From: Gammaproteobacteria bacterium
Lineage (GTDB): Bacteria > Pseudomonadota > Gammaproteobacteria > UBA5335 > SLRW01
Assembly: GCA_035638775.1 (NCBI GenBank)
Contig: DASQZJ010000023.1
Location: 10,827-74,826 of the forward strand
Length of the DNA: 64,000 bases
Direction: 5' to 3'
Made by a program: the position numbers and the translations under genes. A model generated the notes under the pieces. It worked only from the letters and a program-made list of their open reading frames with translations. It searched no databases and had not been told where the DNA came from. Shown piece by piece: positions 27,309 through 51,641 of the stretch. Position 1 is the stretch's first letter, and each line of letters opens with the position of its first letter.

Positions 27309-27362
27309 AGCCGGCGGGCGCGGTCCCGGCGGGTCGCGCGGACCGGGCGGAGGGCGAGTGCG

Positions 27363-31331: not shown

Positions 31332-31391
31332 TGCGTGTCTCCTCGCGCTTCTCCGGCGCCGCGTTCCGGTCTCTCCCGGCACTACCGGAAA

Positions 31392-31407
31392 GCAACATCC
31401 GTACCAG
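31392..31407 (-). promoter_or_regulatory. Sigma-54 (-24/-12) promoter for the FadH-like gene
   Basis: The minus strand reads CTGGTACGGATGTTGCTT. This is one mismatch from TGGCAC-N5-TTGC with correct spacing. The -12 element lies 61 nt upstream of ATG 31331. Confidence 0.6.
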
Positions 31408-31712: not shown

Positions 31713-33722
31713 TCAGGAGTCGCCGGGCCGCGTCCCTTCGAAGGCCGGCGCGCCGTGCTGGCCCCGGTGCCGGCGCAGCTTGCGCCACAGCGTGGTCCGG
31801 CTCAGCTTGAGGCGGCGGGCGGCCTCGCTGATGTTGCCGTTGCACTGGGCCACCATGTCGACGATGCGGCTGTACTCGTTCTGCTCCACGAAGGCCTTGA
31901 GCGAATCCGGATGGTCCGCCTCGCGCCCCGGCTCCGCCGGCGTGGCGAAGAATTCCGGCACCATGGCGCGCAACTGGGCCTCGGTGTCGCGGAGCATCTC
32001 GTCGCCGTGCGCGTACATGACGGCGAGCCGCTCGATGACGTTCTCCATCTCGCGCACGTTGCCCGGCCAGCCGTACCGGCGCAGGAACGGCGCGATGCGC
32101 TCGATCAGCGGCCCGGCGTCCCGGGTCGAGCCCAGTCCCGCCAGGGTGACCGCGAGATGGCGGCGGGCCAGGTCGAGCACGTCCTCGCCCCGCTCGCTCA
32201 GCGCGGGGAGATGGATGCGCAGGATGTTGAGCCGGTAGTACAGGTCCGAGCGCAGTGCGCCCGACTCCATGGACTCCCTCAGGTCCCGGTTGGTGGCGGC
32301 GATCACGCGGACATCGATGGGAATGGGGTCTCCCCGGCCCAGCGGCACCACCTCCTTCTCCTGCAGAACCCGCAGCAGCCGGGTCTGCAGCGCGACGGGC
32401 ATCTCCGCGATCTCGTCCAGGAAGATGGTACCGGTGTGCGCCAGCTCGAACAGGCCGGACTGCCCGCCCCTGCGCGAGCCGGTGAAGGCGCCTTCCTCGT
32501 AGCCGAAAAGCTCGCTCTCCAGCAGGCTGTCGGGAATCGCTGCACAGTTGACGGCGACGAAAGGCGCGTCCCGGCGACTGCTCGCGTTGTGAATGCCCTG
32601 GGCGAAGATCTCCTTGCCGGTCCCGGTCTCCCCGGTGATCAGGACCGTGGCATTGGTGTCCGCATACCGGGCGCACAGCGCCGTGACCTGGCGCATCGCG
32701 GGTGAGGCGCCGATGATGTCGTCGAGGCTGTAGCGCGCGCTGAGGTTGCGCCGGCGGTTGCGGGACCGGATGTTGCGATCGACCCGCTCGATCATGCTGG
32801 TGTCCTGGACCGTGAGCACGGCGCCGCAGACCAGATCGTTGTCCTTGATCGGGATGCGGTTGGTCACCAGCGTGCGGCTGCCGAAGCGCTCGATCTTCTC
32901 CAGTGACGCCTGTCCCTGCCGGATCGTCCCGGCGAGCCCGAGGCTGGGCGCCAGCTCGCTCAGGCGGCGGCCCTCGAGGGCATCGGTGGACAGCCCCGTG
33001 AGGCTCTCCATGGCCGGATTCACGAGCTGCACCCGCTCCTCGTCGTCGACCGCGAGCACGCCCTCGCTGAGATGGCGCAGGATGATGTTGACGCGCTCCG
33101 CACGCCGCTCCTCCGCGGCACGGATGTGGGCGATGTCGATGGCATCGTCGATTGCCTGGCGCACGGAATTGGGCGAGTAGGCGAGAATGCCGATCAGGCC
33201 CTGCCGCTCCGCCAGCTCGGTCACCAGGCTCGAGCCGACGATCACCTTGTAGCCGCGTGAGGCGAGCTCCCGGAAGGCCTCCCGGGCATCGTCGATGGTG
33301 GTGTACGAACGCTGCTCGATGTCCAGGTTGAGCAGCTGCTTGATCTCGTCCAGCTCGCTGTTGGTCTGGCGGAAGGTGACCACCGCGATCTGGTCGGACA
33401 GGCGCCGTGCCTTGATCAGCGCACGCATCAGGTCGACGCCGGTTACCGGGACCCGGACCACCGGCACGGTGAACGTGTCCTTCAGGTAGGTGCCGTTGGC
33501 GCCGGCGCTCAGGAAGACGTCGACCTCGCCGCGCTCGACCAGCTCCCGGGCGATGTCGACCGCGTCGTCGAACACCTTGTCCAGTACCGTGATCTGCGCG
33601 CGCCCGGCATAGTCCGGCATCAGGCTGTGCACCAGCCTGCTCAGCCCCTTGTAGCTGATCGCCGTGATCCGGGGCGGCCGGGTGACCGGCTCCCGTGCGG
33701 CCAGCATCCCCGCCTGGCTCAT
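31713..33722 (-). CDS. PrpR-family sigma-54-dependent transcriptional activator (PrpR_N sensor, PAS, AAA+, Fis-type HTH)
   Basis: ORF 31713..33872 trimmed to ATG 33722 (MSQAGML). The N-terminus is PrpR_N-like (..AISYKGLSRLV..VFLSAGANGTYL..VVRVPVTGVDLMRAL..). Walker A GETGTGKE. ESELFGYEEGAFTGSRRGG (GAFTGS as in E. coli PrpR). C-terminal ..NISEAARRLKLSRTTLWRKL. Confidence 0.85.
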   Translation of the reverse strand: MSQAGMLAAREPVTRPPRITAISYKGLSRLVHSLMPDYAGRAQITVLDKVFDDAVDIARELVERGEVDVFLSAGANGTYLKDTFTVPVVRVPVTGVDLMRALIKARRLSDQIAVVTFRQTNSELDEIKQLLNLDIEQRSYTTIDDAREAFRELASRGYKVIVGSSLVTELAERQGLIGILAYSPNSVRQAIDDAIDIAHIRAAEERRAERVNIILRHLSEGVLAVDDEERVQLVNPAMESLTGLSTDALEGRRLSELAPSLGLAGTIRQGQASLEKIERFGSRTLVTNRIPIKDNDLVCGAVLTVQDTSMIERVDRNIRSRNRRRNLSARYSLDDIIGASPAMRQVTALCARYADTNATVLITGETGTGKEIFAQGIHNASSRRDAPFVAVNCAAIPDSLLESELFGYEEGAFTGSRRGGQSGLFELAHTGTIFLDEIAEMPVALQTRLLRVLQEKEVVPLGRGDPIPIDVRVIAATNRDLRESMESGALRSDLYYRLNILRIHLPALSERGEDVLDLARRHLAVTLAGLGSTRDAGPLIERIAPFLRRYGWPGNVREMENVIERLAVMYAHGDEMLRDTEAQLRAMVPEFFATPAEPGREADHPDSLKAFVEQNEYSRIVDMVAQCNGNISEAARRLKLSRTTLWRKLRRHRGQHGAPAFEGTRPGDS

Positions 33723-34093
33723 GATCGTCGCTTCCCCCTGCGATGCGCCCGGGGCACCCGATCGGATCCGGTGCGTGACCGGCTCCGTCGTCGGGCGGTC
33801 GCCGCCGGCTCGAACCTGGCCCGGACGGCTCGCGTCCCCGGGGGTTTCCTTCTTGTGTCGTGCAAGGCCCATGCCTGCCAGCTCCCTGTTGGGCTAAACC
33901 CTTGTGCGTACGGGGCGTGAGCGGCGGGAGCCCCGATGGAACCGGCATGGACGGGTATCGTTATTCTGTAACAGGTATGTAGCACATGAGAAACAGCACG
34001 GCCAGTGCCGCCATGCCGACCGGCCCTCCCGGCGGCTCTCCGCCCGGGCAAAACACGCGCCCGATAAAGGACTTAATCGGTGATGTGCGATCT

Positions 34094-34109
34094 TGGCACG
34101 GGGGTTGCT
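34094..34109 (+). promoter_or_regulatory. Canonical sigma-54 (-24/-12) promoter
   Basis: TTGGCACGGGGGTTGCTT is an exact TGGCACG-N4-TTGCT. It is divergent from the activator gene and lies about 335 nt upstream of the DUF1329 ATG. Confidence 0.7.
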
Positions 34110-34441: not shown

Positions 34442-35722
34442 ATGTTCGCTTTGAAGAAGATCTGCATGTACGCGGCGCTGGGGGTGGGCGTGGCATCACT
34501 GATGTCCGTGGCCTCGGCCAGGGAGCTTGCGGCCGGCACGGTGATCAACGCGTCGAACTTCGACCAGCTCAAGAACGACACCTTCGAGCAACACACCATC
34601 GCCAGCATGGTCCCGAGTCGGCTCGAGTGGCTGATCAAGAAGCACGGCCTGACGATCCGCCTGGCGCATTCCAAGCCGATCCACATGGATCCGGGATACA
34701 TCAAGCGTACGAAGGAGCACGCCGGCGAGGCGAAGATCAACCCGAAGACTCACGAGATGGAGAACTGGAGCGGCAGCGGCGCGCCCTTCCCGTACGACGA
34801 CATCTCGGCGAAGGACCCGCTCGCGGGCTGGAAGCTGATCTGGGACTTCTACGTCGAGCAGGTGGACGGCGACTACACGCATTTCCCGCGGTTTGCCTAC
34901 CTGCTGATCGACGGCAACAAGGGCATCGAGCGCACGCAGGTGTGGAGCTGGTACCGGGTCAAGATGGTCGGGCTGATCAGCGAGGACCACAAGCCGGTCC
35001 AGGGCGACGGCTCGATCCTGAACAAGACCCAGATCAGTGCCGTCTACCCGCAGGACATCCGCGGGCTGGGCACGCTGACCATCCGCTACATGGCGGACAA
35101 GGTGGACAACACCTGGGCGTACCTGCCGGCGGTCCGGCGCGTGCGGCGCCTGTCCGGCGGCGCCTGGATGGACCCGATCGGCGGCACCGACCAGTTGCAG
35201 GACGACATCAACATCTGGAACGCGCGCCCCAACTGGTACCCGCACATCAAGGTGCTGCGCAAGCAGTGGATGCTGGTGACCGCTCACTCCAAGTGGTCGT
35301 GGAACGAGAAGGGCGGTACCGACGCGCAGAAGTACCCCGAGGTCGATCTGCAGCACAAGCCGTACTGGAATCCCAAGACCGGCTGGGAGCCGCGCCAGGT
35401 CTACGTGGTCGAGGCCGATGCGCCGGACATCCACCCGTACTCCAAGAAGATCATGTACGTGGACGCCAAGTTCCCCTGGATCTGGCAGGGCGAGGCCTAC
35501 GACAAGAAGGGCAAGTTCTGGAAGTACATGTTCTGGCTGGCAATGGAGCACACCTGCCGCGGCAACGGCACCAAGGTGATCTGGCCGGCCCAGGGCGAGG
35601 TGCTGGACTACCAGCGCATGCACGGGACGGTGTTCGTCTCCAACAACAACTGGACCTGCAACCCGAAGGGGCTCAAGCCGAGCGACGTCTCGCTGGGCAG
35701 CCTGATGGCGGCCGGCAGGTAA
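34442..35722 (+). CDS. DUF1329-family periplasmic/outer-membrane-associated protein (LolA-like fold family)
   Basis: 426-aa ORF with a GAGGAGG RBS and signal peptide MFALKKICMYAALGVGVASLMSVASA. ..GAPFP.. ..WYRVK.. ..NTWAYLPAVRRVRRLS..DP..GTD...DD.. ..Y.K..MYVD is the DUF1329 pattern as I recall it. Confidence 0.85.
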   Translation: MFALKKICMYAALGVGVASLMSVASARELAAGTVINASNFDQLKNDTFEQHTIASMVPSRLEWLIKKHGLTIRLAHSKPIHMDPGYIKRTKEHAGEAKINPKTHEMENWSGSGAPFPYDDISAKDPLAGWKLIWDFYVEQVDGDYTHFPRFAYLLIDGNKGIERTQVWSWYRVKMVGLISEDHKPVQGDGSILNKTQISAVYPQDIRGLGTLTIRYMADKVDNTWAYLPAVRRVRRLSGGAWMDPIGGTDQLQDDINIWNARPNWYPHIKVLRKQWMLVTAHSKWSWNEKGGTDAQKYPEVDLQHKPYWNPKTGWEPRQVYVVEADAPDIHPYSKKIMYVDAKFPWIWQGEAYDKKGKFWKYMFWLAMEHTCRGNGTKVIWPAQGEVLDYQRMHGTVFVSNNNWTCNPKGLKPSDVSLGSLMAAGR

Positions 35723-35798: not shown

Positions 35799-36440
35799 AT
35801 GGATCTGACGCCCGGCGGTAGCGCCCTGCTGATCATCGACATGCAGAACGGCTTCCTGCATCCGCAGGGGTCCTGCGCGAGCATCGGGCTGCCCTGCGAC
35901 GCGCTGCGTGCGGCCGTGCCAGGCTGCCGGCAGCTGCTGGAGGCGGCCCGGCGCGAGCGCATGCCGGTGATCTTTACGCGTTACATGTACCGGCCCGACT
36001 ACAGCGACGGCGGGGTGGTGATCCGGGAGTTCTTCCCGGACCTGGCGACCTCGGGGGCGCTGCGTGCCGGCAGCTGGGATGCCGAGGTGGTCGACGAGCT
36101 CGCGCCCCGCGAGGGCGAGCTGGTGGTGGACAAGAACCGTCCCAGCGCGTTCTACGGCACACCGCTGGAGAGCTACCTGAACGGCCTGCATGCCGACAGC
36201 CTGATCGTGTGCGGCGTGACCACCAACGTGTGCGTCGAGACCACGGTGCGGGACGCGATGCAGCGGGACCTGAAGGTCTGGGTGGTGGGCGAGGCGACCG
36301 CGGAGTTCGACCGTGACCGGCACGAGGCGGCGCTCCACTCGATGGGCTGGATGTTCGGCCAGGTCGTGCGGCTCGATGCCGTGCTGAAGGAAATCCCGCG
36401 CCTGGCCGGGGAGCGCGAGCCGGCCGCGGCGGGCTCCTGA
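35799..36440 (+). CDS. Isochorismatase-family cysteine hydrolase
   Basis: 213-aa ORF. ..ALLIIDMQNGF.. ..K.R.SAFYGT.L...L.. ..LIVCGVTTNVCVETTVRDA.. carries the Asp-Lys-Cys triad pattern. Confidence 0.85.
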   Translation: MDLTPGGSALLIIDMQNGFLHPQGSCASIGLPCDALRAAVPGCRQLLEAARRERMPVIFTRYMYRPDYSDGGVVIREFFPDLATSGALRAGSWDAEVVDELAPREGELVVDKNRPSAFYGTPLESYLNGLHADSLIVCGVTTNVCVETTVRDAMQRDLKVWVVGEATAEFDRDRHEAALHSMGWMFGQVVRLDAVLKEIPRLAGEREPAAAGS

Positions 36441-36494: not shown

Positions 36495-37544
36495 ATGGCG
36501 GGGCATTTCGTGATCGACGGTGTGGTGCATCCCTACAACTTCAGCCGGGAGAACCTCCAGGGCCGGTTCGGCGAGTTGTTCAACGACACCATGTACAGCT
36601 ACTACCCGTACGTGAACCCGCCGGAGATCGCGTTCAGCCGCGAGCAGTGGGAGCGGGAGTGGCAGCCGGAGGAGTTCATCGAGACGATCCTGCTCGAGAG
36701 CCCCACCGACATGATCTGCGTCCATTCGCTGCCGATTTACGACGCCTACAGGGACGGCCTGGCGGCCGCCGACAAGTGCGCGCGGCTCAAGCGCGACTAT
36801 CCCGACCGCGTCCTGTGGTACGGCGGCGTCAATCTGTGCTGGCCGGAGCGGGCGCAGGAAGACCTGCAGCAGCAGATCGAGCAGGGCTGCGACGGCATCA
36901 AGCTGTACCCGGCCCGCTACGAGGAGGGGCGGACCCGGTTCTGGCGGCTCAATGACGAGGACCTCGCCTTCCCGCTGCTGGAAGAGGTGCGCCGGCACGG
37001 GATCCGGAACGTCGCGATCCACAAGGCGCTGCCGCTGGGGCCGGTGAGCACCGAGTCGATGCGCATCGACGACATCTCCGACGCGGCCAACGTGTTCCCG
37101 GAGATCAACTTCCAGATCGTCCACGCCGGCTTCATGTTCGTGGACGAGACCAAGTTCCTGATCGCCAACCATCCCAACGTGTACGCCACCATGGAGGCGT
37201 CGACCCTGTTCTGCATCATCAACCCGGCCGGGCTGCAGCAGATCCTGACCGAGTTCCTGCTCTACGGCGGGCCCGAGAAGATCATCTACTCCTCGGCGGC
37301 GGTCAACCCGCATCCGAGGATCGTCCTGGAGGCGTTCGAGAGCTTCCGGATGCCGCCGGATTCGCCGATCCAGCTGGACGAGGCGTTCCGCGAGGCATTT
37401 CTCGGCGGCAACCTGGCGCGGCTGCACGGCATCGACGTCGCCGAGCGCCGCAGGCGGCTGGCGGACGACCGCTTCGCCCGGCACGTCGCGGAGCACGGCT
37501 ACCGCCGTCCCTGGACCGCGGTGCACGGGGAGGCGGCGGCATGA
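36495..37544 (+). CDS. Amidohydrolase_2 (ACMSD/LigI/LigJ/LigW-type TIM-barrel) family protein, member A
   Basis: 349-aa ORF. N-terminal VIDGVVHPYNF takes the place of the usual ID-H-H motif. ..GIKLYP.. ..NVAIHKALP.. ..QIVHAGF.. ..YSSAAV.. follow the strand-end residues of the fold. Confidence 0.8.
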   Translation: MAGHFVIDGVVHPYNFSRENLQGRFGELFNDTMYSYYPYVNPPEIAFSREQWEREWQPEEFIETILLESPTDMICVHSLPIYDAYRDGLAAADKCARLKRDYPDRVLWYGGVNLCWPERAQEDLQQQIEQGCDGIKLYPARYEEGRTRFWRLNDEDLAFPLLEEVRRHGIRNVAIHKALPLGPVSTESMRIDDISDAANVFPEINFQIVHAGFMFVDETKFLIANHPNVYATMEASTLFCIINPAGLQQILTEFLLYGGPEKIIYSSAAVNPHPRIVLEAFESFRMPPDSPIQLDEAFREAFLGGNLARLHGIDVAERRRRLADDRFARHVAEHGYRRPWTAVHGEAAA

Positions 37545-37945
37545 GTACCGCGGACCGCGAGCTGGCGCAGGCGGTCCTGGAGGCTCTGGACGGGGTGCGG
37601 GACGCCTGCATGGTGGCCGCCGGACTGGATCTGAGCGTACGTGAGCTCGGGCTGGTGCGGGACGTCGAGTGCAGCGACGACGGCCAGGTTCGCATCCGCA
37701 TCACCTTCACCGAGCCGGGATGCCCGTTCACTCACCACATGCTCCACCACATCCACGAGGCGGTGGAGCGCGTTCCCGGCATCGCCGGCGTGCGGGTGCA
37801 GCCGGTGTGGGATCCGCCCTGGACCGAGGACTGGATGAGCGAGACGGCGCGCCGCCAGTTCCGGGCCGCGCGCCGGCGCATGGCCGGCGGCGCTACGCCA
37901 CTCCACCCGATGCGCCGCCGGCATTCCGCCGCCGGCAACGACTGA
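37541..37945 (+). CDS. DUF59 / MIP18-family (PaaD-like, Fe-S assembly-related) protein
   Basis: 134-aa ORF in ATGA overlap with the upstream gene. ..V.EALDGVRD....AGLDLSVRELGLVRDVE..DGQVRIRITFTEPGCP... is the classic DUF59 core. Confidence 0.75.
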   Translation: MSTADRELAQAVLEALDGVRDACMVAAGLDLSVRELGLVRDVECSDDGQVRIRITFTEPGCPFTHHMLHHIHEAVERVPGIAGVRVQPVWDPPWTEDWMSETARRQFRAARRRMAGGATPLHPMRRRHSAAGND

Positions 37946-37955
37946 GGAGGTGCCC

Positions 37956-38720
37956 ATGGCTGCCGCGAAAGGATCGGCGAAGCGTACGCGCGTCGAGGCG
38001 CGCAGCATGATGCCGTTGCACAGCCCCCCGTTCGGACCGCCGCCGTACCCGATGCTGGAGTGCCGGATGCTGATGGTGGAGCTGCGCGCGGACCCGGCCG
38101 AGATCCGGCGCATCACGCCGGAGCCGCTGGAGCCGGCGGACCGGGACCGGCTGTTTGCGTTCGTCGCGGACAACAGCCAGCTGTCCCACTCGCTGCGCTA
38201 CCACGAGGCCGCGATCCTGCAGCGCGTCCGTTACGGCGACCGGGAGGGCGTCACCACGCCCTACATCTGGACCTCGACCGACACGGCGATGCTGGCCGGG
38301 CGCGAGCTCTACGGCATGCCCAAGCTGATGTGCGACGACGGTGCCCTCGAGGTCGACGCCAACGAGGTGTACGGGCGCCTGGAAAAATACGGGCGGACCA
38401 TGATGGAGCTGTCCATCGTGATCGATCGCGCGGGCCGGATCGGCGATCTGCCGTTCGGCTCGGACTGGGTCTTCGTCCGTCACATCCCGACGCCCGATCC
38501 GCGCCGCCCGGCGCTGCGACAGCTGGTGTGGATCGGGCTCACGGACTTCGCGCTGCAGGAGTGCTGGCTCGGTCGCGGCTGGGCCGGGCTGGGTCATCCG
38601 GGCTCGTCGGGGCTGCACCGGCTGGGTGCCGCGGCGGCCGGCAGCGCCTGGTACGGACGCTTCTCCTGGATGCTCGGCGACGCCGAGATCCTGGAGGAGA
38701 CCGAGATCCCCGCGCGCTGA
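37956..38720 (+). CDS. Acetoacetate decarboxylase (ADC)-family protein
   Basis: ORF 37950..38720 (GTG). I prefer ATG 37956, 5 nt after GAGGAGG. ..MPLHSPPFGPPPYPM..C.ML.VELRADPAEIRRITPEPLEP.. ..YHEAAILQRVRY.. ..GRELYGMPK is the ADC-like beta-cone family pattern. Confidence 0.75.
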   Translation: MAAAKGSAKRTRVEARSMMPLHSPPFGPPPYPMLECRMLMVELRADPAEIRRITPEPLEPADRDRLFAFVADNSQLSHSLRYHEAAILQRVRYGDREGVTTPYIWTSTDTAMLAGRELYGMPKLMCDDGALEVDANEVYGRLEKYGRTMMELSIVIDRAGRIGDLPFGSDWVFVRHIPTPDPRRPALRQLVWIGLTDFALQECWLGRGWAGLGHPGSSGLHRLGAAAAGSAWYGRFSWMLGDAEILEETEIPAR

Positions 38721-38748
38721 ACGCGGCGGGCCGATACGGGAGGGAGAG

Positions 38749-39630
38749 GTGGCTTCATCACGGCGCGGCGAAGAGCGGCCCTGGAAGATCGACATCGTCT
38801 GCAACCCGTTCACGGAGCAGGAGATCCGTCTCGGTCAGACGGGGTTCGACCGGGACTTCATGGAGCAGGTCCGGATGCCGGAGGACATGCGAGCCGGCGT
38901 GTCGCTGGAGCGCTACATCGCGAAGATGGATCGCGCCGGCATCGAGCGTTCCCTGCTCATCGCCGTGCGGGCGGGCGACATCCGCATGCAGGGCTCGGCG
39001 GAGATTCCCTATGCCCAGGTGGCGCAATATTGCCGCGCGTTCCCCGACCGCTTCTCCGGCCTGGCCGGGGTGGACCCGTTCCGCGGAATGCGGGGCGTGG
39101 CGGAGCTGGAGGAGGCGGTGCGCGGGCACGGCTTCGTCGGCGCGCACCTGTACCCCCACTGGTTCGAGCTGCCCCCGGACCACGCCAAGTACTACCCGTA
39201 CTACGCCAAGTGCTGCGAGCTGGGCATCCCGATCATGATGCAGGTCGGGCAGAACCTGGTCTACAACCGCGCCCGGGCGCTGCCCAGCGTGGGCCGTCCG
39301 ATCTGCCTCGACCGGGTGGCGATCGATTTCCCGGAGCTGCGCCTGATCGGCATCCACATCGGCGTGCCCTGGACGGACGAGATGATCGCCATGGCCTGGA
39401 AGCACGAGAACGTCTTCATCGGGGCCGACGCCTACGCGCCCCGGTATTGGCCGCCGCAGCTCGTGCACTACCTCGACAGCTACGGCCGCGACAAGGTGAT
39501 GTTCGGCACCGACTGGCCCGTGATCGATCCCGAGCGGGCCATGCGCGAGATCGATGAGCTGGGGCTGCGCCCCGAGAGCCGGCGCAGCTTCATGCGGGAC
39601 AACGCCGTCCGGGTCTTCGGGCTGGCGTAG
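38749..39630 (+). CDS. Amidohydrolase_2 family protein, member B
   Basis: ORF 38626..39630 trimmed to an in-frame GTG at 38749 after GGGAGGGA. ..KIDIVCNPF.. replaces the ID-H-H motif. ..GAHLYPHW.. ..IMMQVG.. ..IGIHIGVPW.. ..VMFGTDWP.. are typical of the fold. Confidence 0.8.
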   Translation: MASSRRGEERPWKIDIVCNPFTEQEIRLGQTGFDRDFMEQVRMPEDMRAGVSLERYIAKMDRAGIERSLLIAVRAGDIRMQGSAEIPYAQVAQYCRAFPDRFSGLAGVDPFRGMRGVAELEEAVRGHGFVGAHLYPHWFELPPDHAKYYPYYAKCCELGIPIMMQVGQNLVYNRARALPSVGRPICLDRVAIDFPELRLIGIHIGVPWTDEMIAMAWKHENVFIGADAYAPRYWPPQLVHYLDSYGRDKVMFGTDWPVIDPERAMREIDELGLRPESRRSFMRDNAVRVFGLA

Positions 39631-39776
39631 TCCCCGGTTTCACCCGCCGGCAGGAGCCGACCGGATATGTCGATGTATACGTCAACTGCCTCTGGCGAAC
39701 GTGTCCCGTCCTCTCCCGGGACCGGGCGGCGCCTGCCGCCCACCGCTTCTGACGTATCCGGTATCCCGGGAACCCG

Positions 39777-39792
39777 GGGTGCGGGTCTTGTA
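39777..39792 (+). promoter_or_regulatory. Weak sigma-54-like element sharing the CTTGTAA -12 variant
   Basis: GGGTGCGGGTCTTGTAA. The GG and spacing are conserved, the -24 is degenerate, and the -12 is TTGT. It lies only about 25 nt before ATG 39816. Speculative. Confidence 0.25.
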
Positions 39793-39815
39793 ATCGAAGC
39801 CGGCGGAGCGCACCG

Positions 39816-41384
39816 ATGACCCGCCGGCGCGAATCCGGCCCCGCCCCGTCGCGGCCGCCCACCTACCGCCCCCTCACCATCTCCGGGGGCATCCGCGCCG
39901 CGGCCGGGCGTACGCCGGACAAGCCGGCACTCGGCATGGACGGCCGCTCGCTGTGCTACCGCGACCTGGTCGAACGTATCGACCGCGTGTCCAATGCGGC
40001 GCGGGCCGGGCTGGGCCTGGCCCGCGGGGAACGCGTGGCGCTGCTGGCGCCCAACTGCCCCGAGCTGGTGGAGCTGGTGTGCGGACTGTCCGCGGTCGGG
40101 ATCGCGGCGGTGATGGTCAATCCGCGGCTCACCGCGGCCGAGATCGCCTACATCTGCGCCGACTCGGGCGCACGCGCGATGCTGGTGCATCCCGAGCTCG
40201 AGGACCTGGCCCGGTCGGCCGACCTGCCCGGGATCGAGCAGATCATCGTGCTCGGGCCCGGCTACGAGGACTGGCTCGGCAGGGCCGCCGCCACCCCGCC
40301 CGGGGCCGCCGTGGAGGAGTGGGACGTGTTCGCCATGCACTACACGGCGGGCACCACGGGGGAGCCCAAGGGCGTGCTGCTGCCCCACCGCTCGCGCGCC
40401 CTCACCTTCTTCGGCATGGCCGCGGAGTACGGCTGCTACGGTCCCGCCGACCGCGCGCTGGCGATCGCGCCGATGTTCCACGGCGCGGGCTTCGCCTTCG
40501 CCGTGGCCCCCGTGTTCTTCGGCGGCTACTGCGAGATCCTCCCGCGCTTCGACCCGGAGCGCGCCCTGGGATTGATGGCCGACTGCGCCGTCACCAACAC
40601 CTTCATGGTGCCGACCCATTTCCAGGCACTGTTCGCGCTGGGCGCACAGGTGCTGCAGCGCCAGCGCACGCCGGCCCTGCGGACCATCGTCTCGAACGCG
40701 GCACCGCTGGCCCAGGCGATGAAGGAGCGCATCGTGGCGTACTTCGGCGAGGGGATCCTGCACGAGACCTACGGCTCCACCGAGGCCGGCATCGTGTGCA
40801 ACCTGCGACCGGAGGACCAGCTGCGCAAGCAGCAGTGCGTGGGCCTGCCGTTCCCCTGCACCGAGGTGCGCCTGCTGGGCGACGACGGCCGGGAGGTGGC
40901 GCCGGGCGAGGTGGGCGAGCTGCACAGCCTCTCGCCGTACCTGTTCAACGGCTACTGGGGCCGGCCGGAGGCGACCGCGCAAGCGCTGCGCGAGGGCTGG
41001 CTGACGGTCGGAGACCTGGCCCGGCGGGACGAGGAAGGCTACCTGTACATCGTCGACCGCAAGAAGGACATGATCATCTCCGGCGGGGTGAACGTCTACC
41101 CGCGGGAGATCGAGGAGCACCTGCTGCGCCATCCGGGGGTCGCGGAAGCGGCGGTCATCGGCGTACCCGACGAGTACTGGGGCGAGGCGGTGCGGGCCTG
41201 CGTGGTGCGCCGGCCCGGTGCGGACGTGACCGCCGGGCAGCTCATGGCGCACTGCGAGGGGCACCTCGCACGCTACAAGCTGCCGCGGGTGATCGCGTTC
41301 GTGGACGAACTGCCCCGCAACGCCGCCGGAAAGGTGCTCAAGCGGCAGCTGCGGGACACCTTCGAAAGGGGCACGGGAGCATGA
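39816..41384 (+). CDS. AMP-dependent acyl-CoA synthetase/ligase
   Basis: 522-aa ORF. AMP-binding motifs YTAGTTGEPKGV, ..ETYGSTE.., ..GDLARRDEEGYLYIVDRKKDMIISGGVNVYPREIE.., ..GK..K. Confidence 0.9.
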   Translation: MTRRRESGPAPSRPPTYRPLTISGGIRAAAGRTPDKPALGMDGRSLCYRDLVERIDRVSNAARAGLGLARGERVALLAPNCPELVELVCGLSAVGIAAVMVNPRLTAAEIAYICADSGARAMLVHPELEDLARSADLPGIEQIIVLGPGYEDWLGRAAATPPGAAVEEWDVFAMHYTAGTTGEPKGVLLPHRSRALTFFGMAAEYGCYGPADRALAIAPMFHGAGFAFAVAPVFFGGYCEILPRFDPERALGLMADCAVTNTFMVPTHFQALFALGAQVLQRQRTPALRTIVSNAAPLAQAMKERIVAYFGEGILHETYGSTEAGIVCNLRPEDQLRKQQCVGLPFPCTEVRLLGDDGREVAPGEVGELHSLSPYLFNGYWGRPEATAQALREGWLTVGDLARRDEEGYLYIVDRKKDMIISGGVNVYPREIEEHLLRHPGVAEAAVIGVPDEYWGEAVRACVVRRPGADVTAGQLMAHCEGHLARYKLPRVIAFVDELPRNAAGKVLKRQLRDTFERGTGA

Positions 41385-42328
41385 CCATGCGCATTGCCGC
41401 GGCACACGTGGCGCCGGTGCTGCTGGACCGGCAGGCCTGCATCGGCAAGGCCTGTGACTGGATCGAGCGCGCGGGCCGGGAGGGCGTCGGTCTGCTGGTT
41501 TTTCCGGAGGTGTTCGTGCCCGGCTTCCCGTACTGGATCAACTGTTACCCGCCGCTGGCACAGGGGGAGCTGAACCTGCGCTACATGCGCGCATCGGTGG
41601 CGGTTCCGGGACCGGAGATCGATGCCGTCCGCGACGCCGCGCGCGCCGCCGGCGTGACCGTGGTGCTGGGCGTGAGCGAGCGCGACGGCGGCACCTGCTA
41701 CAACACCCAGGTGTTCGTCGCCGCCGACGGCACCCTGCTGGGCAAGCATCGCAAGCTGCAGCCGACCTACGCCGAGCGCTACATCTGGGGCCAGGGAGAC
41801 GGCTCCACGCTGCGCGTGTGGGACACGCCCGCCGGGCGCGTCGGCGGGCTGGCCTGCTGGGAGCACACCATGAACCTGGCGCGGCAGGCGCTGATCGACC
41901 AGGGGCTGCAGATCCATGCCGGCTCCTGGCCGGCGCTCGGCACCCTGGCCGGCTTCGACGCCATGTTCGACGACCAGGTCGAGGCCATGAGCCGCGCCCA
42001 TGCGATCACGGGCCAGTGTTTCGTGGTGGTGGCCCAGGATACCGTTACCCGGCAGATGCTGGACGTCATGAGCGACGCCCTGGGGCCGCAGGAATTGCTG
42101 GCCCCCGGGGGCGGCTGGTCGGCGGTGATCCATCCCTGGGGTACGTACCTCGCCGGTCCTCATCGCGGCGGCGACGAAGCGCTGGTCCTGGCGGACGTCG
42201 ATCCGGGCGACATCGACGTGGTCAAGGGCTTCGTCGACACCGCCGGTCACTATGCGCGGCCGGAGGTGCTGCGCCTGGTGCTCGACGACCGTGCCCGCAC
42301 CCCGCTGCAACGGTGCGGGCGCGACTGA
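41381..42328 (+). CDS. Nitrilase-superfamily C-N hydrolase (branch-1 nitrilase-like)
   Basis: ORF 39953..42328 trimmed to ATG 41381, in ATGA overlap with the ligase stop. Glu-Lys-Cys triad contexts LLVFPEVFVPGFPYW, GKHRKLQPT, GGLACWEH. Confidence 0.85.
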   Translation: MTMRIAAAHVAPVLLDRQACIGKACDWIERAGREGVGLLVFPEVFVPGFPYWINCYPPLAQGELNLRYMRASVAVPGPEIDAVRDAARAAGVTVVLGVSERDGGTCYNTQVFVAADGTLLGKHRKLQPTYAERYIWGQGDGSTLRVWDTPAGRVGGLACWEHTMNLARQALIDQGLQIHAGSWPALGTLAGFDAMFDDQVEAMSRAHAITGQCFVVVAQDTVTRQMLDVMSDALGPQELLAPGGGWSAVIHPWGTYLAGPHRGGDEALVLADVDPGDIDVVKGFVDTAGHYARPEVLRLVLDDRARTPLQRCGRD

Positions 42329-42441: not shown

Positions 42442-42457
42442 TGGCACGGTTCTTGTA
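42442..42457 (+). promoter_or_regulatory. Sigma-54-type promoter with a variant -12 (TTGT)
   Basis: CGTGGCACGGTTCTTGTAAC has a perfect -24 TGGCACG with correct spacing to TTGT. It is nearly identical to the element at 45130 and lies about 170 nt upstream of ATG 42627. Confidence 0.45.
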
Positions 42458-42626
42458 ACGGGATCCGCACGGGCAGGGTGCCCGGCCGACCGGCGAGTCG
42501 TCCGTGGGACCCCGGTGGAACGCGCCGGTTCGGACTCCGCGGCACCCCGCCCTCCATGGTTCTGCCGGGCGCCGGGACGGGCGGGGATCCCGCCGCCCGG
42601 GGACGGCCGGAAGCGAGGGAGAAACG

Positions 42627-44234
42627 ATGTCCGCGACGACGCAAACGGCGGGTTCGGAACTGCAGGCCAGGCTCGCCGCCGTGCTCGGCAGGGAGCAGGT
42701 GCTGACCGACCCGGCTTCCCGGGATTACTTCTCCCGGGACCTGAGCTACCTGCCGTGGGAGCGCGCGGCGCTGGTGGTGAGTCCGGCGACCACGGAAGAG
42801 CTGGCCGAGGCAGTGCGCCTGGCCACCGCGGCCGGCCACGCGGTGATTCCCCGGGGCGGCGGGATGTCGTATACGCGCGGCTACACGCCGGACAGCAGCC
42901 GCTCGGTGATCGTGGACATGCGCCGCATGGACCGCGTGGTCGAGATCAATACCGAGGACATGTACGTCACGGTCGAGTGCGGCTGCACCTGGAAGAAGCT
43001 GTACGAGGCGCTGCGCGAGAAGGACGTGCGTACGCCGTACTACGGGCCGCTGTCGGGGATGTTCGCGACCGTGGGCGGGGCGCTGTCCCAGAACAGCCTG
43101 TTCCTGGGCTCGGGCGACAACAACACCGCCGCCGAGAGCCTGCTCGGGCTGGAAGTGATCCTCGGTGACGGCACGCTGCTCCGGACCGGTTCCTGGGCGC
43201 ACCGTCACAGCAACCCCTTCTACCGGCACTTCGGGCCGGACGTCAGCGGCATCTTCACCGCCGATACGGGCGCGTTCGGCTTCAAGGCGCGCGCGACGCT
43301 GCGCCTGATCCGCCGGCCGGCCGCGACCTTCACCATGTCGTTCGCGTTCCGGACGCTGCGCGACCTCCTGGGGACACAGACCGAGATGGCGCGCCTGCGC
43401 ATCGCGGCCGAGTGCTACGGCTTCGATCCGTACTACAACGCCGCGTTCGAGAAGAGCGGCTTCAGCTTCAAACAGGGGGTGGCGACGCTGCGCGGCGTGG
43501 CCCGCTCGGGCCGGACGCTGGCGGCAGGTCTCGGGAATGCCCTGCGCGTCGCGCGCGCCGGCCGTACGGTCCTGCGGGGCGTGCCGTACTCCCTGCACAT
43601 GACCTTCGAGGGCCACACGCCGACGATCGCCGCGGAGAAGCTGCTGATGGCGCGCGAGATCTGCCGGCACCACCACGGCACCGAGATCGACAACAGTCTG
43701 CCCACGGTGTTCAACGCGACACCGTTCGACGGCGTCGGCTCGGTGATCCTGGGCGCGGACGGCGAGATCTGGCTTCCGGTGCACGGATTCATGCCTTTGT
43801 CGCGGGTGCAGGCCGTGGGTGCGGCCATCGAGCAGTTCTTCGCCGACAACCGGGAGCTGATGGAAAGCCACCGCATCCGCACCTCGTACCTGACCTGCTT
43901 CGCCGGCACCGAGTTCGTCATCGAGCCGAGCTTCTACTGGTACGACGAGGTGCAGCAGTTCCGGCTGGACAAGCTGGAGCCGGACAAGCGGCGGCAGTGG
44001 CAGGGCCGTTCGCCGGAGCCCGAGGCCCGGGCCGTCGCCCTGGACCTGCGCGACCGGTTGCGCCAGCTGATGGACGAGCACGGCTGCTGCCACCTCCAGA
44101 TCGGACGCTACTACCCCTATCGCGAGATGATGAACAACGAGGCCCTGTGGTCCCTGCTCGGCATGCTGAAGGAGGACCTGGACCCGAGGGGACTGGTCAA
44201 CCCCGGGTCGCTGGGGCTGGAGGAGGACGCATGA
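42627..44234 (+). CDS. FAD-binding (FAD_binding_4 / GlcD-like, vanillyl-alcohol-oxidase fold) oxidoreductase
   Basis: ORF 42504..44234 trimmed to ATG 42627 (GAGGGAGAAACG-ATG). ..VVSPATTEELAEAVRLA..AGHAVIPRGGGMSY.. is the PCMH-type FAD-binding pattern. C-terminal ..DP.GLVNPG. Confidence 0.8.
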   Translation: MSATTQTAGSELQARLAAVLGREQVLTDPASRDYFSRDLSYLPWERAALVVSPATTEELAEAVRLATAAGHAVIPRGGGMSYTRGYTPDSSRSVIVDMRRMDRVVEINTEDMYVTVECGCTWKKLYEALREKDVRTPYYGPLSGMFATVGGALSQNSLFLGSGDNNTAAESLLGLEVILGDGTLLRTGSWAHRHSNPFYRHFGPDVSGIFTADTGAFGFKARATLRLIRRPAATFTMSFAFRTLRDLLGTQTEMARLRIAAECYGFDPYYNAAFEKSGFSFKQGVATLRGVARSGRTLAAGLGNALRVARAGRTVLRGVPYSLHMTFEGHTPTIAAEKLLMAREICRHHHGTEIDNSLPTVFNATPFDGVGSVILGADGEIWLPVHGFMPLSRVQAVGAAIEQFFADNRELMESHRIRTSYLTCFAGTEFVIEPSFYWYDEVQQFRLDKLEPDKRRQWQGRSPEPEARAVALDLRDRLRQLMDEHGCCHLQIGRYYPYREMMNNEALWSLLGMLKEDLDPRGLVNPGSLGLEEDA

Positions 44235-45028
44235 GCATCCGGAAGGGATATGTCGACACCCGGGACGGGCAGATCCACTATCGCGTCAGCGCCGCGGCCG
44301 GGCCGGCGCTCGTGTTCCTGCACCAGACCGCCAGCTCGTCCGCGATGTGGGAGCAGATCATGCAGCGCCTGGAAGGACGCTGCCACATGGTCGCCCTCGA
44401 CACGCCGGGCTTCGGCGGGTCTTACGACCCCGGCGTGGTGGCCCCGGACATCGGCTACTACCGCGATGCGTTCCTGGAGGCCCTGGCGGGGCTGGGGCTG
44501 GAGGAGTTCCACCTGTGCGGTCATCACACCGGTGCCTGCGTGGCCGTGGACATCGCGGCCCGCCATCCCCGCCGGGTGCTGAGCCTGGCGATCTTCGGCC
44601 CGGTCCAGCTCACCGCCGCGGAGCGGGAGGAGTTCCGCAAGCACTTCTCGGAGCCGATCGCGCCGCGCGCCGACGGCGGACACCTGCAGCAAACCTGGGA
44701 CTACCTCGCCGGGCTGGGCGCCGACCGCTCCCTCGATCTGCACCACCGCGAGCTGCTCGACACGGTGCGCGCCTGGCGCGGACGGGCGGCGGCCTACGCG
44801 GCGGTGTGGGACCAGGACTTCCCGTCGCTGTACGCCCGGGTGCAGTGCCCGACCCTGATCATGGCGGCCCGCGACGACGTGCTGTGGCCCTACTTCGAGC
44901 GGGCCCGGCGGGACCGGCCCGAGGTGCGGTCCGTGGTCCTGGAGGGCGCGAACTTCGAACCGGATCTCGACCCGGATGCCTCGAGCGCCGCGTTGAACGA
45001 GCTGGTCGTCTCCGCGGGCCCGCACTGA
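44231..45028 (+). CDS. Alpha/beta-fold protein with an atypical nucleophile elbow (G-H-H-T-G)
   Basis: ORF 43412..45028 trimmed to ATG 44231, in ATGA overlap with the upstream stop. ..PALVFLHQT.. ..FHLCGHHTGACVAVDIAARHP.. The fold pattern is intact, but the Ser/Asp nucleophile position is His. Confidence 0.8.
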   Translation: MSIRKGYVDTRDGQIHYRVSAAAGPALVFLHQTASSSAMWEQIMQRLEGRCHMVALDTPGFGGSYDPGVVAPDIGYYRDAFLEALAGLGLEEFHLCGHHTGACVAVDIAARHPRRVLSLAIFGPVQLTAAEREEFRKHFSEPIAPRADGGHLQQTWDYLAGLGADRSLDLHHRELLDTVRAWRGRAAAYAAVWDQDFPSLYARVQCPTLIMAARDDVLWPYFERARRDRPEVRSVVLEGANFEPDLDPDASSAALNELVVSAGPH

Positions 45029-45129: not shown

Positions 45130-45145
45130 TGGCACGGAACTTGTA
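45130..45145 (+). promoter_or_regulatory. Sigma-54-type promoter with a variant -12 (TTGT)
   Basis: CGTGGCACGGAACTTGTAAG has a perfect -24 and correct spacing. It lies 45 nt upstream of ATG 45190. A palindrome GTTGCA-ccgc-TGCAAC (45040-45055) sits 75-90 bp upstream, a typical enhancer distance. Confidence 0.5.
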
Positions 45146-45189: not shown

Positions 45190-45546
45190 ATGTCGAGGAA
45201 GGCCAAGGGCAAGCGCCCGATCTATTTCGAGAACCCCGAGAGCGACCGCCTGCTCGCGATCACGATGGCCGTGGCCGGCGAGCTCGCGGTGCTGCGGGAG
45301 CGGCTGGATACCGTCGAGCGCCTCGCCGAGGACCGGGGCCTGCTGCTGCGATCCGAGATCGAAAGCTACCGCGCCGACGAGGCCGTCGAGGACGAGCGCG
45401 AAGCCTGGCGTGCCGAGTACCTGGAGCGGGTCCTGCGGATCGTCCATCACGAGCTCGAATCCGAGCAGCAGGGCGAGACGCGCAGGAAATACGAGCGCGA
45501 GGTCCGCGACCATCTGCGGCAGGGAGCCGCCGAGATCGGTTCCTGA
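45190..45546 (+). CDS. Hypothetical helical, charged protein (118 aa)
   Basis: ORF 44347..45546 trimmed to ATG 45190 (GGGGAGGAGG RBS). MSRKAKGKRPIYFENPESDRLLAITMAVAGELAVLRERLDTVERLAE.. No family recognised. High GC3 is consistent with coding. Confidence 0.6.
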   Translation: MSRKAKGKRPIYFENPESDRLLAITMAVAGELAVLRERLDTVERLAEDRGLLLRSEIESYRADEAVEDEREAWRAEYLERVLRIVHHELESEQQGETRRKYEREVRDHLRQGAAEIGS

Positions 45547-45591
45547 AGACCGCAACTGCCGGCCCGCGAGCGAACCGGAGGAGGAGACGCG

Positions 45592-46749: not shown

Positions 46750-46793
46750 CCGCGGCCCGAGCGAGCGGCGCCGGCGGCGCCGGGAGGTGCGAG

Positions 46794-47204: not shown

Positions 47205-47254
47205 TGCCCGCCTGACGATCCGGCCCGCCCGCCGCCCGCACAGGAGCTGCAGCC

Positions 47255-50136: not shown

Positions 50137-50311
50137 GGGTCTTCGGACCGGCTGTTCCGCATCTGTAACGCGGGTGTGTCAGCGGGGTAACAACCGCCGG
50201 CAGCCCCGGCTCGGACGGGGCTGTGCGGCGGGCCGCGTGTCCGCTGCCGGAGGCGCTAACGGCAGGAAAAACAGGCAAAAGCATCCGCATTCGGTGCCTT
50301 GGCCCGGGAGT

Positions 50312-50327: not shown

Positions 50328-50435
50328 TCACAGGGAGTCGAGCGATCGCACCGCACGGCGGCGCGCCAGGGAAGACTGGCACCGGCAGGAATACCGATTC
50401 ACAGACCGCAACGAGAAACGAAGGCCGCGACGGCG

Positions 50436-51635: not shown

Positions 51636-51641
51636 ATCGTC

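Follow-up and report, generated by a model that had tools for sequence, protein, structure and literature searches.

A divergent PF04909 barrel (AH1) and a small DUF59 protein encoded beside it form a conserved gene pair, and their sequences point to an undescribed two-protein metalloenzyme. The pair lies in a cassette of four genes at positions 36495-39630 of the window (the whole 64,000-nucleotide stretch of gammaproteobacterial DNA that was analyzed), the other two encoding an acetoacetate decarboxylase (ADC)-like protein and a second PF04909 barrel (AH2). The initial annotation treated the four genes as a single system, but the cassette is more than one evolutionary unit: AH1 plus DUF59 is its sole everywhere-conserved part, whereas AH2 travels with an acyl-CoA synthetase (ACS) and the ADC gene is present in only some of the operons. 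Full-text literature searches turned up no characterized system of this composition, as had been claimed, and no description of the AH1-DUF59 pairing.

Translational coupling of the four genes, all on the forward strand, was confirmed, and they are as tightly packed as first described. AH1 (36495..37544, a divergent PF04909 (β/α)8 barrel; Pfam, 66 bits) has a GGAGG 8 nt 5' of its ATG, and its TGA overlaps the ATG of the DUF59 gene (37541..37945; PF01883, 45 bits) in an ATGA at 37541-37544. A 10-nt gap, exactly GGAGGTGCCC, precedes the ATG of the ADC-like gene (37956..38720; PF06314, 121 bits), and a 28-nt gap that includes GGGAGGGAGAG precedes the GTG of AH2 (38749..39630; a BB4693-like PF04909 barrel, 147 bits). 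GC3 is about 0.9 in all four ORFs, as for real genes, in a genome of 70% GC. Four further gammaproteobacterial genomes (L005, L006, L007 and L008) share the exact order AH1-DUF59-ADC-AH2.

Related loci numbered 82, of which the 79 non-redundant ones contain 83 AH1 genes in five or more phyla; carriers include Alpha- and Gammaproteobacteria, Actinomycetota, Dehalococcoidia/Chloroflexales, Acidobacteriota and Kofleriaceae. A DUF59 gene lay on the same strand within 300 bp of 81 of the 83 AH1 genes, and the two without such a neighbor were at contig ends. Both gene orders occurred, with DUF59 first in 43 pairs and AH1 first in 38, and the two genes usually overlap; stop/start overlaps were found in the window and in the annotated loci L001, L003, L004 and L084. 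Three loci (L011, L024 and L032) each contain two distinct AH1-DUF59 pairs within one operon, i.e., the pair duplicates as a unit. No AH1-DUF59 gene fusion was found among the 150 best family representatives. Distance matrices for the two proteins were correlated with r = 0.86, compared with no more than 0.09 across 200 permutations, a correlation that owes part of its size to shared phylogeny and operon co-transfer. From the pairing, we infer that AH1 and its DUF59 partner interact, physically or functionally.

Both barrels were originally described as non-canonical PF04909 proteins lacking the strand-1 His-x-His, and this was borne out. Profile-profile alignment placed their first strands, VIDGVVHPYN in AH1 and KIDIVCNPF (IDIVCN) in AH2, in register, with V10/H12 of AH1 and V17/N19 of AH2 at the canonical positions. 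An H-x-H within the first 45 residues was present in only 2/83 AH1 and 0/30 AH2 family members. However, although the motif as such is lost in both, AH1 retains its second histidine, H12, which is invariant across the family. The two proteins are distant paralogues (22% identity, E = 2e-8; hhalign probability 97%).

In sequences down to 37% identity, the invariant residues of AH1 are H12, H77, H176, K177, H210, E234 and H273; the strand-8 Asp is absent. In the secondary structure of an AlphaFold model (pLDDT 91), H77 and H176 belong to strands 2 and 5, respectively; H12, H210 and E234 follow strands 1, 6 and 7; and H273 is part of the post-strand-8 loop. This predicted placement, taken from secondary structure rather than coordinates, would put the invariant His/Glu ring on the barrel's catalytic face, i.e., the C-terminal ends of the strands. 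The metal independence that had been proposed is therefore unlikely for AH1, given this five-His/one-Glu ring and an obligate partner whose family serves in metal-cofactor assembly; AH1 is probably metal-dependent. Characterized DUF59 proteins serve Fe-S or iron proteins; a role for AH1 as a classical Fe-S client is a poor fit, because conserved cysteines are missing from it, and this counts against DUF59-assisted assembly of AH1.

Tat (twin-arginine) signals are present on at least 15 orthologues of AH1 but absent from the DUF59 partners and AH2 proteins of the same loci. They include the AH1 proteins of type B loci, which are about 38-40% identical to AH1 of the window and in which the DUF59 gene precedes AH1. 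A Tat signal on AH1 and none on DUF59 would mean that cofactor loading and folding precede export.

The DUF59 partner has two invariant cysteines, C23 in a D-A/P-C motif and C61 in G-C-P, kept in 77/79 and 79/79 partners, respectively. C23 occupies the position of the Glu in the canonical D-x-E/D-P-E, so that D-P-C replaces D-P-E, whereas just a single Cys is strictly conserved in SufT-type DUF59 proteins (PMC4982691). Such an invariant cysteine pair, with one member newly acquired, is suggestive of chemistry involving metal or redox steps. In database searches, the nearest relative other than the partners themselves was a genuine PaaD (P0140), encoded in a paaA-paaD-paaB-paaC cluster, and PaaD was also an NCBIfam match, although with a score of 54.6 against the PaaD cut-off of 108. 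Like the partner, PaaD is a small stand-alone DUF59 protein encoded within a metalloenzyme operon (PaaABC(D)E). Phenylacetyl-CoA epoxidase, the enzyme of that operon, depends on PaaD in vivo but not in vitro, as an enzyme would on its assembly factor, and iron insertion by PaaD has been suggested (PMC4498308). The partner differs from PaaD in its D-P-C, with the resulting two invariant cysteines, in a longer loop behind that motif, and in lacking the C-terminal zinc ribbon; its client would be a PF04909 TIM barrel, whereas that of PaaD is a ferritin-like di-iron oxygenase.

The cassette forms the center of a putative catabolic operon. Divergent from it, on the reverse strand, is a gene for a PrpR-type sigma-54 activator (31713..33872; PrpR_N, PAS, Sigma54_activat and HTH_8 by Pfam), with an orthologue placed likewise in L005 and L004. 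An exact sigma-54 -24/-12 consensus on the forward strand, TGGCACGGGGGTTGCT (34094..34109), occupies the intergenic region between the activator gene and the first gene of the operon, which encodes a DUF1329/LolA-like lipoprotein (34442..35722, forward strand, as are all further genes; Pfam). Then comes an isochorismatase-family cysteine hydrolase of the amidase type (35799..36440; Pfam/NCBIfam), whose best NCBIfam matches, BiuH and RutB, were both under cut-off, and which co-occurs with AH1 in 25 loci. Downstream of the cassette are the ACS (AMP-binding; 39816..41384; Pfam) and a nitrilase-superfamily C-N hydrolase (41381..42328; Nit6803-like, below cut-off), the latter also adjoining AH1-DUF59 in Euzebya. 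A sigma-54-like site at 42442-42457 precedes a FAD_binding_4 oxidase (FADox; 42624..44234; Pfam), which is followed by an alpha/beta hydrolase (ABH; 44231..45028) conserved with the AH2 module. FADox is also found downstream of type B AH1.

We give about even chances to the following reading, based on these sequences and the AH1 model: AH1 depends on metal for its activity and is either assembled by DUF59 or in complex with it, as part of a sigma-54/PrpR-controlled operon degrading a nitrogen-containing acid. The His-rich ring would take the place of the usual His-x-His/Asp metal site, making AH1 a mono- or dinuclear metal enzyme, most likely a hydrolase, hydratase or decarboxylase. By analogy with PaaD, DUF59 would load the metal center in the cytoplasm, as a dedicated chaperone or small subunit. 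AH2 would work with ACS, FADox and ABH, perhaps as a lactonase or hydrolase that needs no metal and supplies the acid that the ligase activates, and the ADC-fold protein would be an optional Schiff-base decarboxylase or aldolase. Because the operon encodes two cysteine-type C-N hydrolases, an amide-, nitrile- or carbamoyl-bearing organic acid is suggested as substrate. The roles proposed for AH2 and the ADC-fold protein, and the substrate class, derive solely from family membership and gene neighborhood. The decarboxylation, hydration or retro-aldol chemistry envisaged in the initial annotation is plausible.

We consider it unlikely that AH1 is instead an oxygen-activating relative of the amidohydrolase-related dinuclear oxygenases (AROs; AibH2, PtmU3, SfbO) with a His-rich di-iron or Mn/Fe site, for which the two-Cys DUF59 protein, as a stoichiometric partner replacing the Rieske ferredoxin used by many AROs, would supply either iron or, through a bridging Fe-S cluster, electrons. 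The AROs (AibH1H2, PtmU3, SfbO and DitZ) share the PF04909 family and fold with AH1 and AH2, are routinely mis-annotated as "amidohydrolase", and show that this fold can hold non-canonical metal sites and can require a second PF04909 subunit (PMC7782822, PMC13154177). Dinuclear oxygenases are thus known among PF04909 barrels (PMC7782822, PMC10811679, PMC13154177), AibH1H2 was among the AH1 Foldseek matches (8ful, rank 20), and AH1 has His/Glu at four ARO ligand positions, i.e., strand 1, strand 5, strand 7 and the post-strand-8 loop (x-P-H) (ligands from PMC7782822). In addition, PaaD, the closest characterized relative of the DUF59 partner, serves a di-iron oxygenase (PMC4498308), and a flavoprotein oxidase gene often directly follows AH1. 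However, strand 1 of AH1 reads V-x-H instead of D-x-H and its C-terminal loop V-N-P-H-P-R instead of D-x-P-H-x-D/E (the pattern D.PH.[DE] matched 0/83 AH1 sequences), so that three carboxylate ligands are missing; AH2 lacks both motifs too. In place of a Rieske ferredoxin, AH1 is paired with a DUF59 protein, a kind of partner absent from the ARO papers, and no conserved Rieske or reductase gene was found nearby. A reductant-dependent monooxygenase is also unlikely in the periplasm, where some AH1 proteins are predicted to reside, and Foldseek scores of AH1 to AROs were no better than to decarboxylases.

It is improbable that both barrels are metal-independent like LigI, with DUF59 a structural or regulatory subunit with no part in cofactor assembly. 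Metal-free PF04909 enzymes do exist (PMC10811679), and His-x-His is absent from both proteins; AH2 is moreover missing the strand-5 His, its NCBIfam matches include a weak one to a metal-independent fuconolactonase, and it may itself be metal-independent. Against this stand, for AH1, the five invariant His and the Glu at what the model predicts to be superfamily metal-binding positions, the metal or redox chemistry suggested by the partner's cysteines, and the Tat export of orthologues, typical of cofactor-containing proteins. LigI, LigW, LigJ, LigY, ACMSD and gamma-resorcylate decarboxylase, all among our sequence or Foldseek matches, resemble AH1 and AH2 in fold, family and occurrence in catabolic operons. 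Such non-redox ring-fission enzymes have a strand-1 His/Glu-x-His, a strand-5 His and a strand-8 Asp, or keep these residues without metal, whereas strand 1 reads V-x-H in AH1, which also lacks the strand-8 Asp, and V-x-N in AH2, whose strand 8 reads GTDWPVID. We know of none that requires a DUF59 partner.

Slightly more improbable still is an AH1/AH2 heteromer, also raised in the initial annotation, with catalysis by one subunit and a structural role for the other. There is precedent in AibH1 and AibH2, two 28%-identical PF04909 proteins that form an obligate α2α'2 heterotetramer (PMC7782822), and AH1 and AH2, themselves paralogues, share one operon in 29/79 loci, often directly flanking the DUF59 gene. 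However, an obligate heteromer is unlikely: no AH2 lies within 10 kb of AH1 in about 50/79 loci, including all those of Actinomycetota, Chloroflexota and Acidobacteriota. AH2 begins directly at strand 1 and never carries a Tat signal, unlike type B AH1, and is 65-80% identical where AH1 is just 38-59% identical. It has more than 6,500 relatives versus 249 for AH1, a size difference of at least 25-fold between the families, and AH2, highly conserved and paired with ACS, belongs to a much larger AH2-ACS-ABH-FADox module, mostly without AH1, as in L085 and L086. Finally, incidental operon compaction with AH1 and DUF59 functionally unlinked, which might be entertained because overlapping stop/start codons are frequent in high-GC operons and ADC and AH2 shift position between genomes, is effectively refuted for this pair by adjacency in 81/81 testable cases across phyla and in both orders, surviving even duplication, although it is still partly true for ADC.

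The closest solved structure for both barrels is BB4693 of Bordetella bronchiseptica (PDB 3irs/3k4w), an uncharacterized PF04909 barrel. AH2 matched it over residues 50-290 (E = 1.6e-21), whereas AH1, with its own set of invariant His residues, is far more divergent (family profile E = 3e-4; Foldseek target TM-score 0.75). The ADC-like protein keeps the Schiff-base Lys expected of its fold (GRELYGMPK) and the upstream Glu (YHEA), as in the acetoacetate decarboxylase family (ADC, MppR and Sbi00515-type aldolase-dehydratases). However, it falls under the true-ADC score (55 bits against 150 bits), has Leu at the second lysine of the K-K pair, and is encoded in only about eight loci, at varying positions. 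The 185-nt spacer between AH2 and ACS (39631..39815, forward strand) matched no Rfam family; it is predicted to be structured (MFE -96 kcal/mol, z = -3.7) and is 87% identical in L005.

The four open reading frames described in the initial annotation are present and tightly packed, and the families assigned to them were borne out by Pfam. The window has a GC content of ~70%, and a GC3 filter applied to it yields a single clear series of plus-strand genes, running from 34.4 to 49.3 kb. AH1 (36495-37544, +), the first of two barrels matching Pfam Amidohydro_2 (66 bits), has GGAGG 8 nt ahead of its ATG, and its stop codon overlaps in an ATGA with the start (37541, +) of a DUF59 gene (FeS_assembly_P/DUF59, 45 bits). 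A 10-nt spacer, GGAGGTGCCC, separates the latter from the ATG at 37956 (+) of an ADC-like gene (Pfam ADC, 121 bits), and the second barrel, AH2 (Amidohydro_2, 147 bits), starts with a GTG at 38749 (+), the preceding 28 nt including GGGAGGGAGAG. The first strands of the barrels read VIDGVVHPYN (AH1) and KIDIVCNPF (AH2), just as had been noted. The original observation is thus correct and worth flagging; its interpretation, in which the four genes formed one system, has to be re-centred from the set of four onto the AH1-DUF59 pair. We mapped all window proteins onto 82 loci (79 non-redundant) encoding AH1 relatives, taken from one genome per species. Among these, the exact order AH1-DUF59-ADC-AH2 recurs in only four gammaproteobacterial genomes, i.e., a related MAG (L005, with an AH1 89% identical), Salinisphaera sp. 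PC39, a Lysobacterales MAG and a Salinisphaeraceae MAG, and neither ADC nor AH2 is constant. Because AH2 modules occur without AH1 or DUF59 (loci L085 and L086), the cassette straddles two modules.

The notable feature is an obligate AH1-DUF59 pair. Using an HMM of the partner proteins, we found a same-strand DUF59 gene within 300 bp of 81 of the 83 AH1 genes, the other two lying in loci truncated at contig ends. The carriers of these 81 pairs are Alpha- and Gammaproteobacteria, Actinomycetota, Dehalococcoidia/Chloroflexales, Acidobacteriota and a Kofleriaceae MAG; the order of the genes may be DUF59-first (n = 43) or AH1-first (n = 38), and the two genes overlap in all annotated examples. Three operons (L011, L024 and L032) carry two different pairs, one of type A, which is cytoplasmic and has AH1 before DUF59, and one of type B, in which DUF59 precedes an AH1 that is ~38-40% identical to that of the window; the pair therefore duplicates as a unit. 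Pairwise distance matrices for AH1 and DUF59 are correlated with r = 0.86 (maximum of 0.09 over 200 permutations), a value of which shared ancestry explains part. No description of the pairing was found in the full-text literature searched.

Gene fusions were sought as evidence for a complex, and none among the best 150 family representatives was genuine. One candidate (P0236) is a frameshift artefact in which AH1 reads through into the adjacent DUF59 gene, another (P0220) is a chimera joining RTX-like repeats to the C-terminal half of AH1, and the other long members owe their length to Tat signals or read-through tails. As a separate observation, a gene for an FGE-sulfatase-like protein (SUMF1/EgtB/PvdO family) lies directly upstream of DUF59-AH1 in 11 loci, mostly from Actinomycetota MAGs, at ~1 kb ahead of the AH1 match; the three genes make up a conserved unit (L063-L067, L071, L075, L076 and L078-L080).

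The PF04909 family has recently been shown to hide whole enzyme classes under the label "amidohydrolase". AH1 matches it with 66 bits (cut-off 26.4), although the match spans residues 88-310 only, and an AlphaFold2 model (pLDDT 91.4, pTM 0.92) is a (beta/alpha)8 barrel with eight strand-helix units. In a Foldseek search with this model every top match was a PF04909 structure; these include the decarboxylases, LigW, ACMSD, LigY and BB4693, the last with a target TM-score of 0.75, while the AibH1H2 hydroxylase appeared at rank 20. A search of the PDB with the single sequence gave chance matches only, and the one structure reached by the family profile was BB4693 (3irs; E = 3e-4), itself an uncharacterised barrel. 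The family is small: among 1.84 billion cluster representatives there were 736 matches at E <= 1e-3, 298 at E <= 1e-10 and 92 at E <= 1e-30.

The initial annotation had stated that both barrels lack the canonical N-terminal His-x-His. Profile-profile alignment placed the AH1 and AH2 families in register (probability 97%, E = 3e-11), with the canonical positions occupied by V10/H12 in AH1 and V17/N19 in AH2. Neither has an intact His-x-His, so that the claim stood to this extent, but AH1 retains the second His, H12, which is invariant. AH1 departs from the canonical PF04909 ligand set (strand-1 His/Glu-x-His, strand-5 His, strand-8 Asp) in having V10-x-H12 on strand 1 and A268 at the strand-8 Asp position, where it aligns with D255 of AH2, although the strand-5 H176 and the strand-6 H210 are present. 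In an alignment reaching 37% identity, H12, H77, H176, K177, H210, E234 and H273 are invariant, as are E68, D72, K136, D193, E218 and D325. In the model, H12 follows strand 1, H77 and H176 lie at the ends of strands 2 and 5, H210 and E234 follow strands 6 and 7, and H273 is in the loop after strand 8; these are the barrel positions at which metal sites of the amidohydrolase superfamily are built. AH1 has thus dispensed with the strand-8 Asp and with the first of the two His-x-His histidines, while five His and one Glu, retained or acquired, form a ring. This conserved ligand set differs both from the hydrolase/decarboxylase type and from the oxygenase type, i.e., that of the amidohydrolase-related dinuclear oxygenases (AROs).

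DUF59 is a very widespread domain, yet the role of PaaD is listed as "unknown", and for SufT/CIA2 the description goes no further than "involved in" Fe-S maturation. The partner of AH1 is a clear member (PF01883, 45.4 versus 23.5 bits; match to TM0487 at E = 7e-15), and two cysteines are common to the partner proteins. C61 is the canonical DUF59 Cys, within a T-x-x-x-C-P motif, and is kept in 79 of 79. C23 lies in a D-[PA]-C motif in 77 of 79; the canonical acidic D-P-E motif is not found, the D-P-C of the AH1 partners aligning with D-x-E or D-P-E in TM0487, generic DUF59 proteins and PaaD. Since SufT homologues have a single strictly conserved Cys (PMC4982691), the second Cys is a signature of the AH1-partner clade. 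Two known identities were considered and rejected: PaaD (TIGR02159, 54.6 versus 108 bits; NF041868, 55.2 versus 180 bits), there being no PaaA/B/C genes among the window proteins scanned, and SufT (TIGR02945, 76.5 versus 143.4 bits), there being no suf genes nearby. The closest relative outside the clade is a real PaaD, encoded within a paaA-paaD-paaB-paaC cluster. PaaD is indispensable in vivo, and dispensable in vitro, for the di-iron oxygenase PaaABCE, and a role in iron insertion has been proposed (PMC4498308).

The best mechanism, to which we would give an even chance, is that AH1 is metal-dependent and that the two-cysteine DUF59 protein would either build its metal centre or share in it. 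Canonical twin-arginine signals are present on at least 15 AH1 orthologues, making up the type B group, in Alpha- and Gammaproteobacteria, and are absent from the DUF59 partners, AH2 and the FAD oxidase of the same loci; among the operons with two pairs, the type B AH1 of L032 has the signal and none was detected in L011 or L024. Tat export of AH1 would fit loading of its cofactor in the cytoplasm. A more specific proposal, offered tentatively and on balance unlikely, is that AH1-DUF59 is a new family of two-component metalloenzymes, in which a His-rich PF04909 barrel, related to the AROs but outside them, would need a stoichiometric two-Cys DUF59 subunit to supply metal, ligands or electrons, e.g., via a Cys-ligated Fe-S or Fe centre at the interface. 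If true, this would be the first defined non-Fe-S-client partner for the DUF59 fold, and the amidohydrolase superfamily would prove to include new chemistry. A DUF59 clade with AH1 as its single, obligate and easily expressed client would also be a simple system for learning the role of the fold.

The main rival, which we consider improbable, is that AH1 is an ARO-like, O2-dependent enzyme. The His and Glu positions of the AROs are kept in AH1 but the three Asp are missing, equivalence being judged from the published motif and the strand positions in our model. The defining marks of AROs are D-x-H on strand 1 and, towards the C-terminus, a D-x-P-H-x-D/E loop (PMC13154177). The strand-1 motif is absent, AH1 having I-D-G-V-x-H (with V-x-H in register) and AH2 having D-I-V, and a regular expression for the loop matched 0 of 83 AH1 and 0 of 30 AH2 sequences, where V-N-P-H-P-R and D-W-P-V-I-D, respectively, are found. 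Because both defining motifs are missing, neither AH1 nor AH2 is an ARO. Moreover, Tat export makes a reductant-dependent monooxygenase less likely for the exported members. A small Rieske ferredoxin encoded nearby is typical of many AROs, although not of all; there was no match to PF00355 among the 29 window proteins scanned, nor any conserved ferredoxin-like cluster in the 82 loci. The ARO papers make no mention of DUF59.

The loss of canonical ligands had led the initial annotation to suggest that the barrels might be independent of metal. A metal-free AH1 is less likely still, because the five His and one Glu that were kept or gained are invariant and lie at metal-site positions of the superfamily; judged from the sequences and the model, this ring argues for a non-canonical metal site instead. 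About as improbable is a heteromer of AH1 and AH2, also raised by the initial annotation, for which the precedent is AibH1H2, an obligate alpha2-alpha'2 assembly of two PF04909 paralogues, one subunit of which carries the di-metal site (PMC7782822): an obligate complex is hard to reconcile with type B AH1 having a Tat signal that AH2 lacks, and the constant co-occurrence expected from AibH1H2 fails, AH1 and AH2 being encoded together in the window and at 29 of the 79 loci, and AH2 occurring mostly without AH1.

AH2 itself is a BB4693-like member of PF04909 (146.8 bits) with V17-x-N19 on strand 1, no strand-5 His, H203 on strand 6 and, in 28 of 30 orthologues, D255 on strand 8; its NCBIfam match to L-fucono-1,5-lactonase is weak (16.5 versus 400 bits). 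In the 29 of 79 loci that encode it, it always adjoins an acyl-CoA synthetase (ACS) gene, and its identity is 65-80% across classes in which that of AH1 reaches just 38-59%. More than 6,500 members (clusters) make up its family, the best 120 all being at least 73% identical to the window AH2. On large genomes it forms highly conserved modules with ACS, an alpha/beta hydrolase of ~540 aa and a FAD_binding_4 oxidase, without AH1 or DUF59 and with or without an isochorismatase gene (L085, 8001-13741; L086, 8001-16376). This is apparently a common uncharacterised pathway of soil and marine bacteria, which deserves its own annotation. The AH2-ACS spacer in the window (39631-39815, 185 nt) has an unusually stable fold (-96 kcal/mol, z = -3.7) and a counterpart of 87% identity in the related MAG L005; it holds GGGTGCGGGTCTTGTA, which resembles the variant sigma-54 motif; an Rfam scan of the window, spacer included, gave no matches.

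The ADC-like protein has the ADC fold (121 bits) and the Schiff-base Lys motif (E-x-W/Y-G-x-P-K), its GRELYGMPK aligning with GRELWGFPKK of Chromobacterium ADC; of the 9 orthologues in related loci, 7 share this motif with the window protein. It was rejected as a true acetoacetate decarboxylase (NF002614, 55.3 versus 150 bits), the second Lys of the K-K pair being Leu or Met. ADC is present in ~8 loci, at three different positions; an optional ADC would suit a step that can also run spontaneously, e.g., decarboxylation of a beta-keto acid. The window also encodes an isochorismatase-family protein with the cysteine-hydrolase motif and a nitrilase-like protein with the CWEH cysteine, and genes of both kinds accompany AH1-DUF59 in the actinobacterium Euzebya as well, which suggests that the substrate of the operon may contain C-N bonds. 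The neighbourhoods differ between lineages, with PrpR and DUF1329/DUF1302 in the window, the FGE-sulfatase-like gene in Actinomycetota, and IclR, a TonB-dependent receptor, GGT, dienelactone hydrolase and an aromatic-type monooxygenase in marine Alpha- and Gammaproteobacteria; therefore, only a broad class of substrate can be proposed. Marine Rhodospirillaceae MAGs share a long operon (L034, L036, L038, L039, L041, L042, L044, L047 and L049) that encodes cupin/DUF4437, PAS_5 and glyoxalase-fold proteins, gamma-glutamyltranspeptidase, IclR, a TonB-dependent receptor, isochorismatase, AH2 and ACS, followed by DUF59, AH1, FAD oxidase, dienelactone hydrolase, aldehyde dehydrogenase and a FAD_binding_3 monooxygenase, with a Tat signal detected on AH1 in L034, L041 and L049. 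From its gene content, it looks like an operon for uptake and catabolism of an aromatic, amide-bearing compound.

In the window, a gene for a PrpR-type sigma-54 activator diverges from the operon, and between the two lies an exact sigma-54 consensus, TGGCAC-N5-TTGCT (34094-34109, +); a second is at 50312-50327 (+). Three sites have one mismatch: two on the plus strand with the variant TGGCACGGNNCTTGTA, at 42442-42457 ahead of the FAD oxidase gene and at 45130-45145 ahead of a small ORF, and one on the minus strand (31391-31406) ahead of a gene for an old yellow enzyme (OYE)-type flavoenzyme. All five sites (two exact and three one-mismatch -24/-12 elements) lie just upstream of transcription units around the activator gene, and together they look like one regulon of five or more transcription units.

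Two paralogous FadH/OYE-type flavoenzymes (Oxidored_FMN plus Pyr_redox_2) bracket the cluster (29247-31310, -; 47216-49315, +). Inside it, 45190-47204 encodes a 118-aa ORF without a Pfam family, a 385-aa SAM methyltransferase with a long N-terminal extension and a SnoaL-like protein, a set that travels with the cluster in Salinisphaera, a Lysobacterales MAG and sphingomonad MAGs (L004/L007, L006, L030 and L031). Upstream, 17851-28775 encodes an FTR1 iron permease, AtuA (acyclic terpene utilisation family), a 5-formyltetrahydrofolate cyclo-ligase family protein and an aconitase-family protein, and two ORFs without a Pfam match (22751-24169, -; 25769-26626, -) have a strong coding signal. Downstream are a family III CoA-transferase and an HMGL-like lyase (50169-52577), an MMPL/RND-like transporter with DUF1302 (53419-57679), which are the usual companions of DUF1329, and the A and B subunits of a hydantoinase/oxoprolinase (58365-62394).
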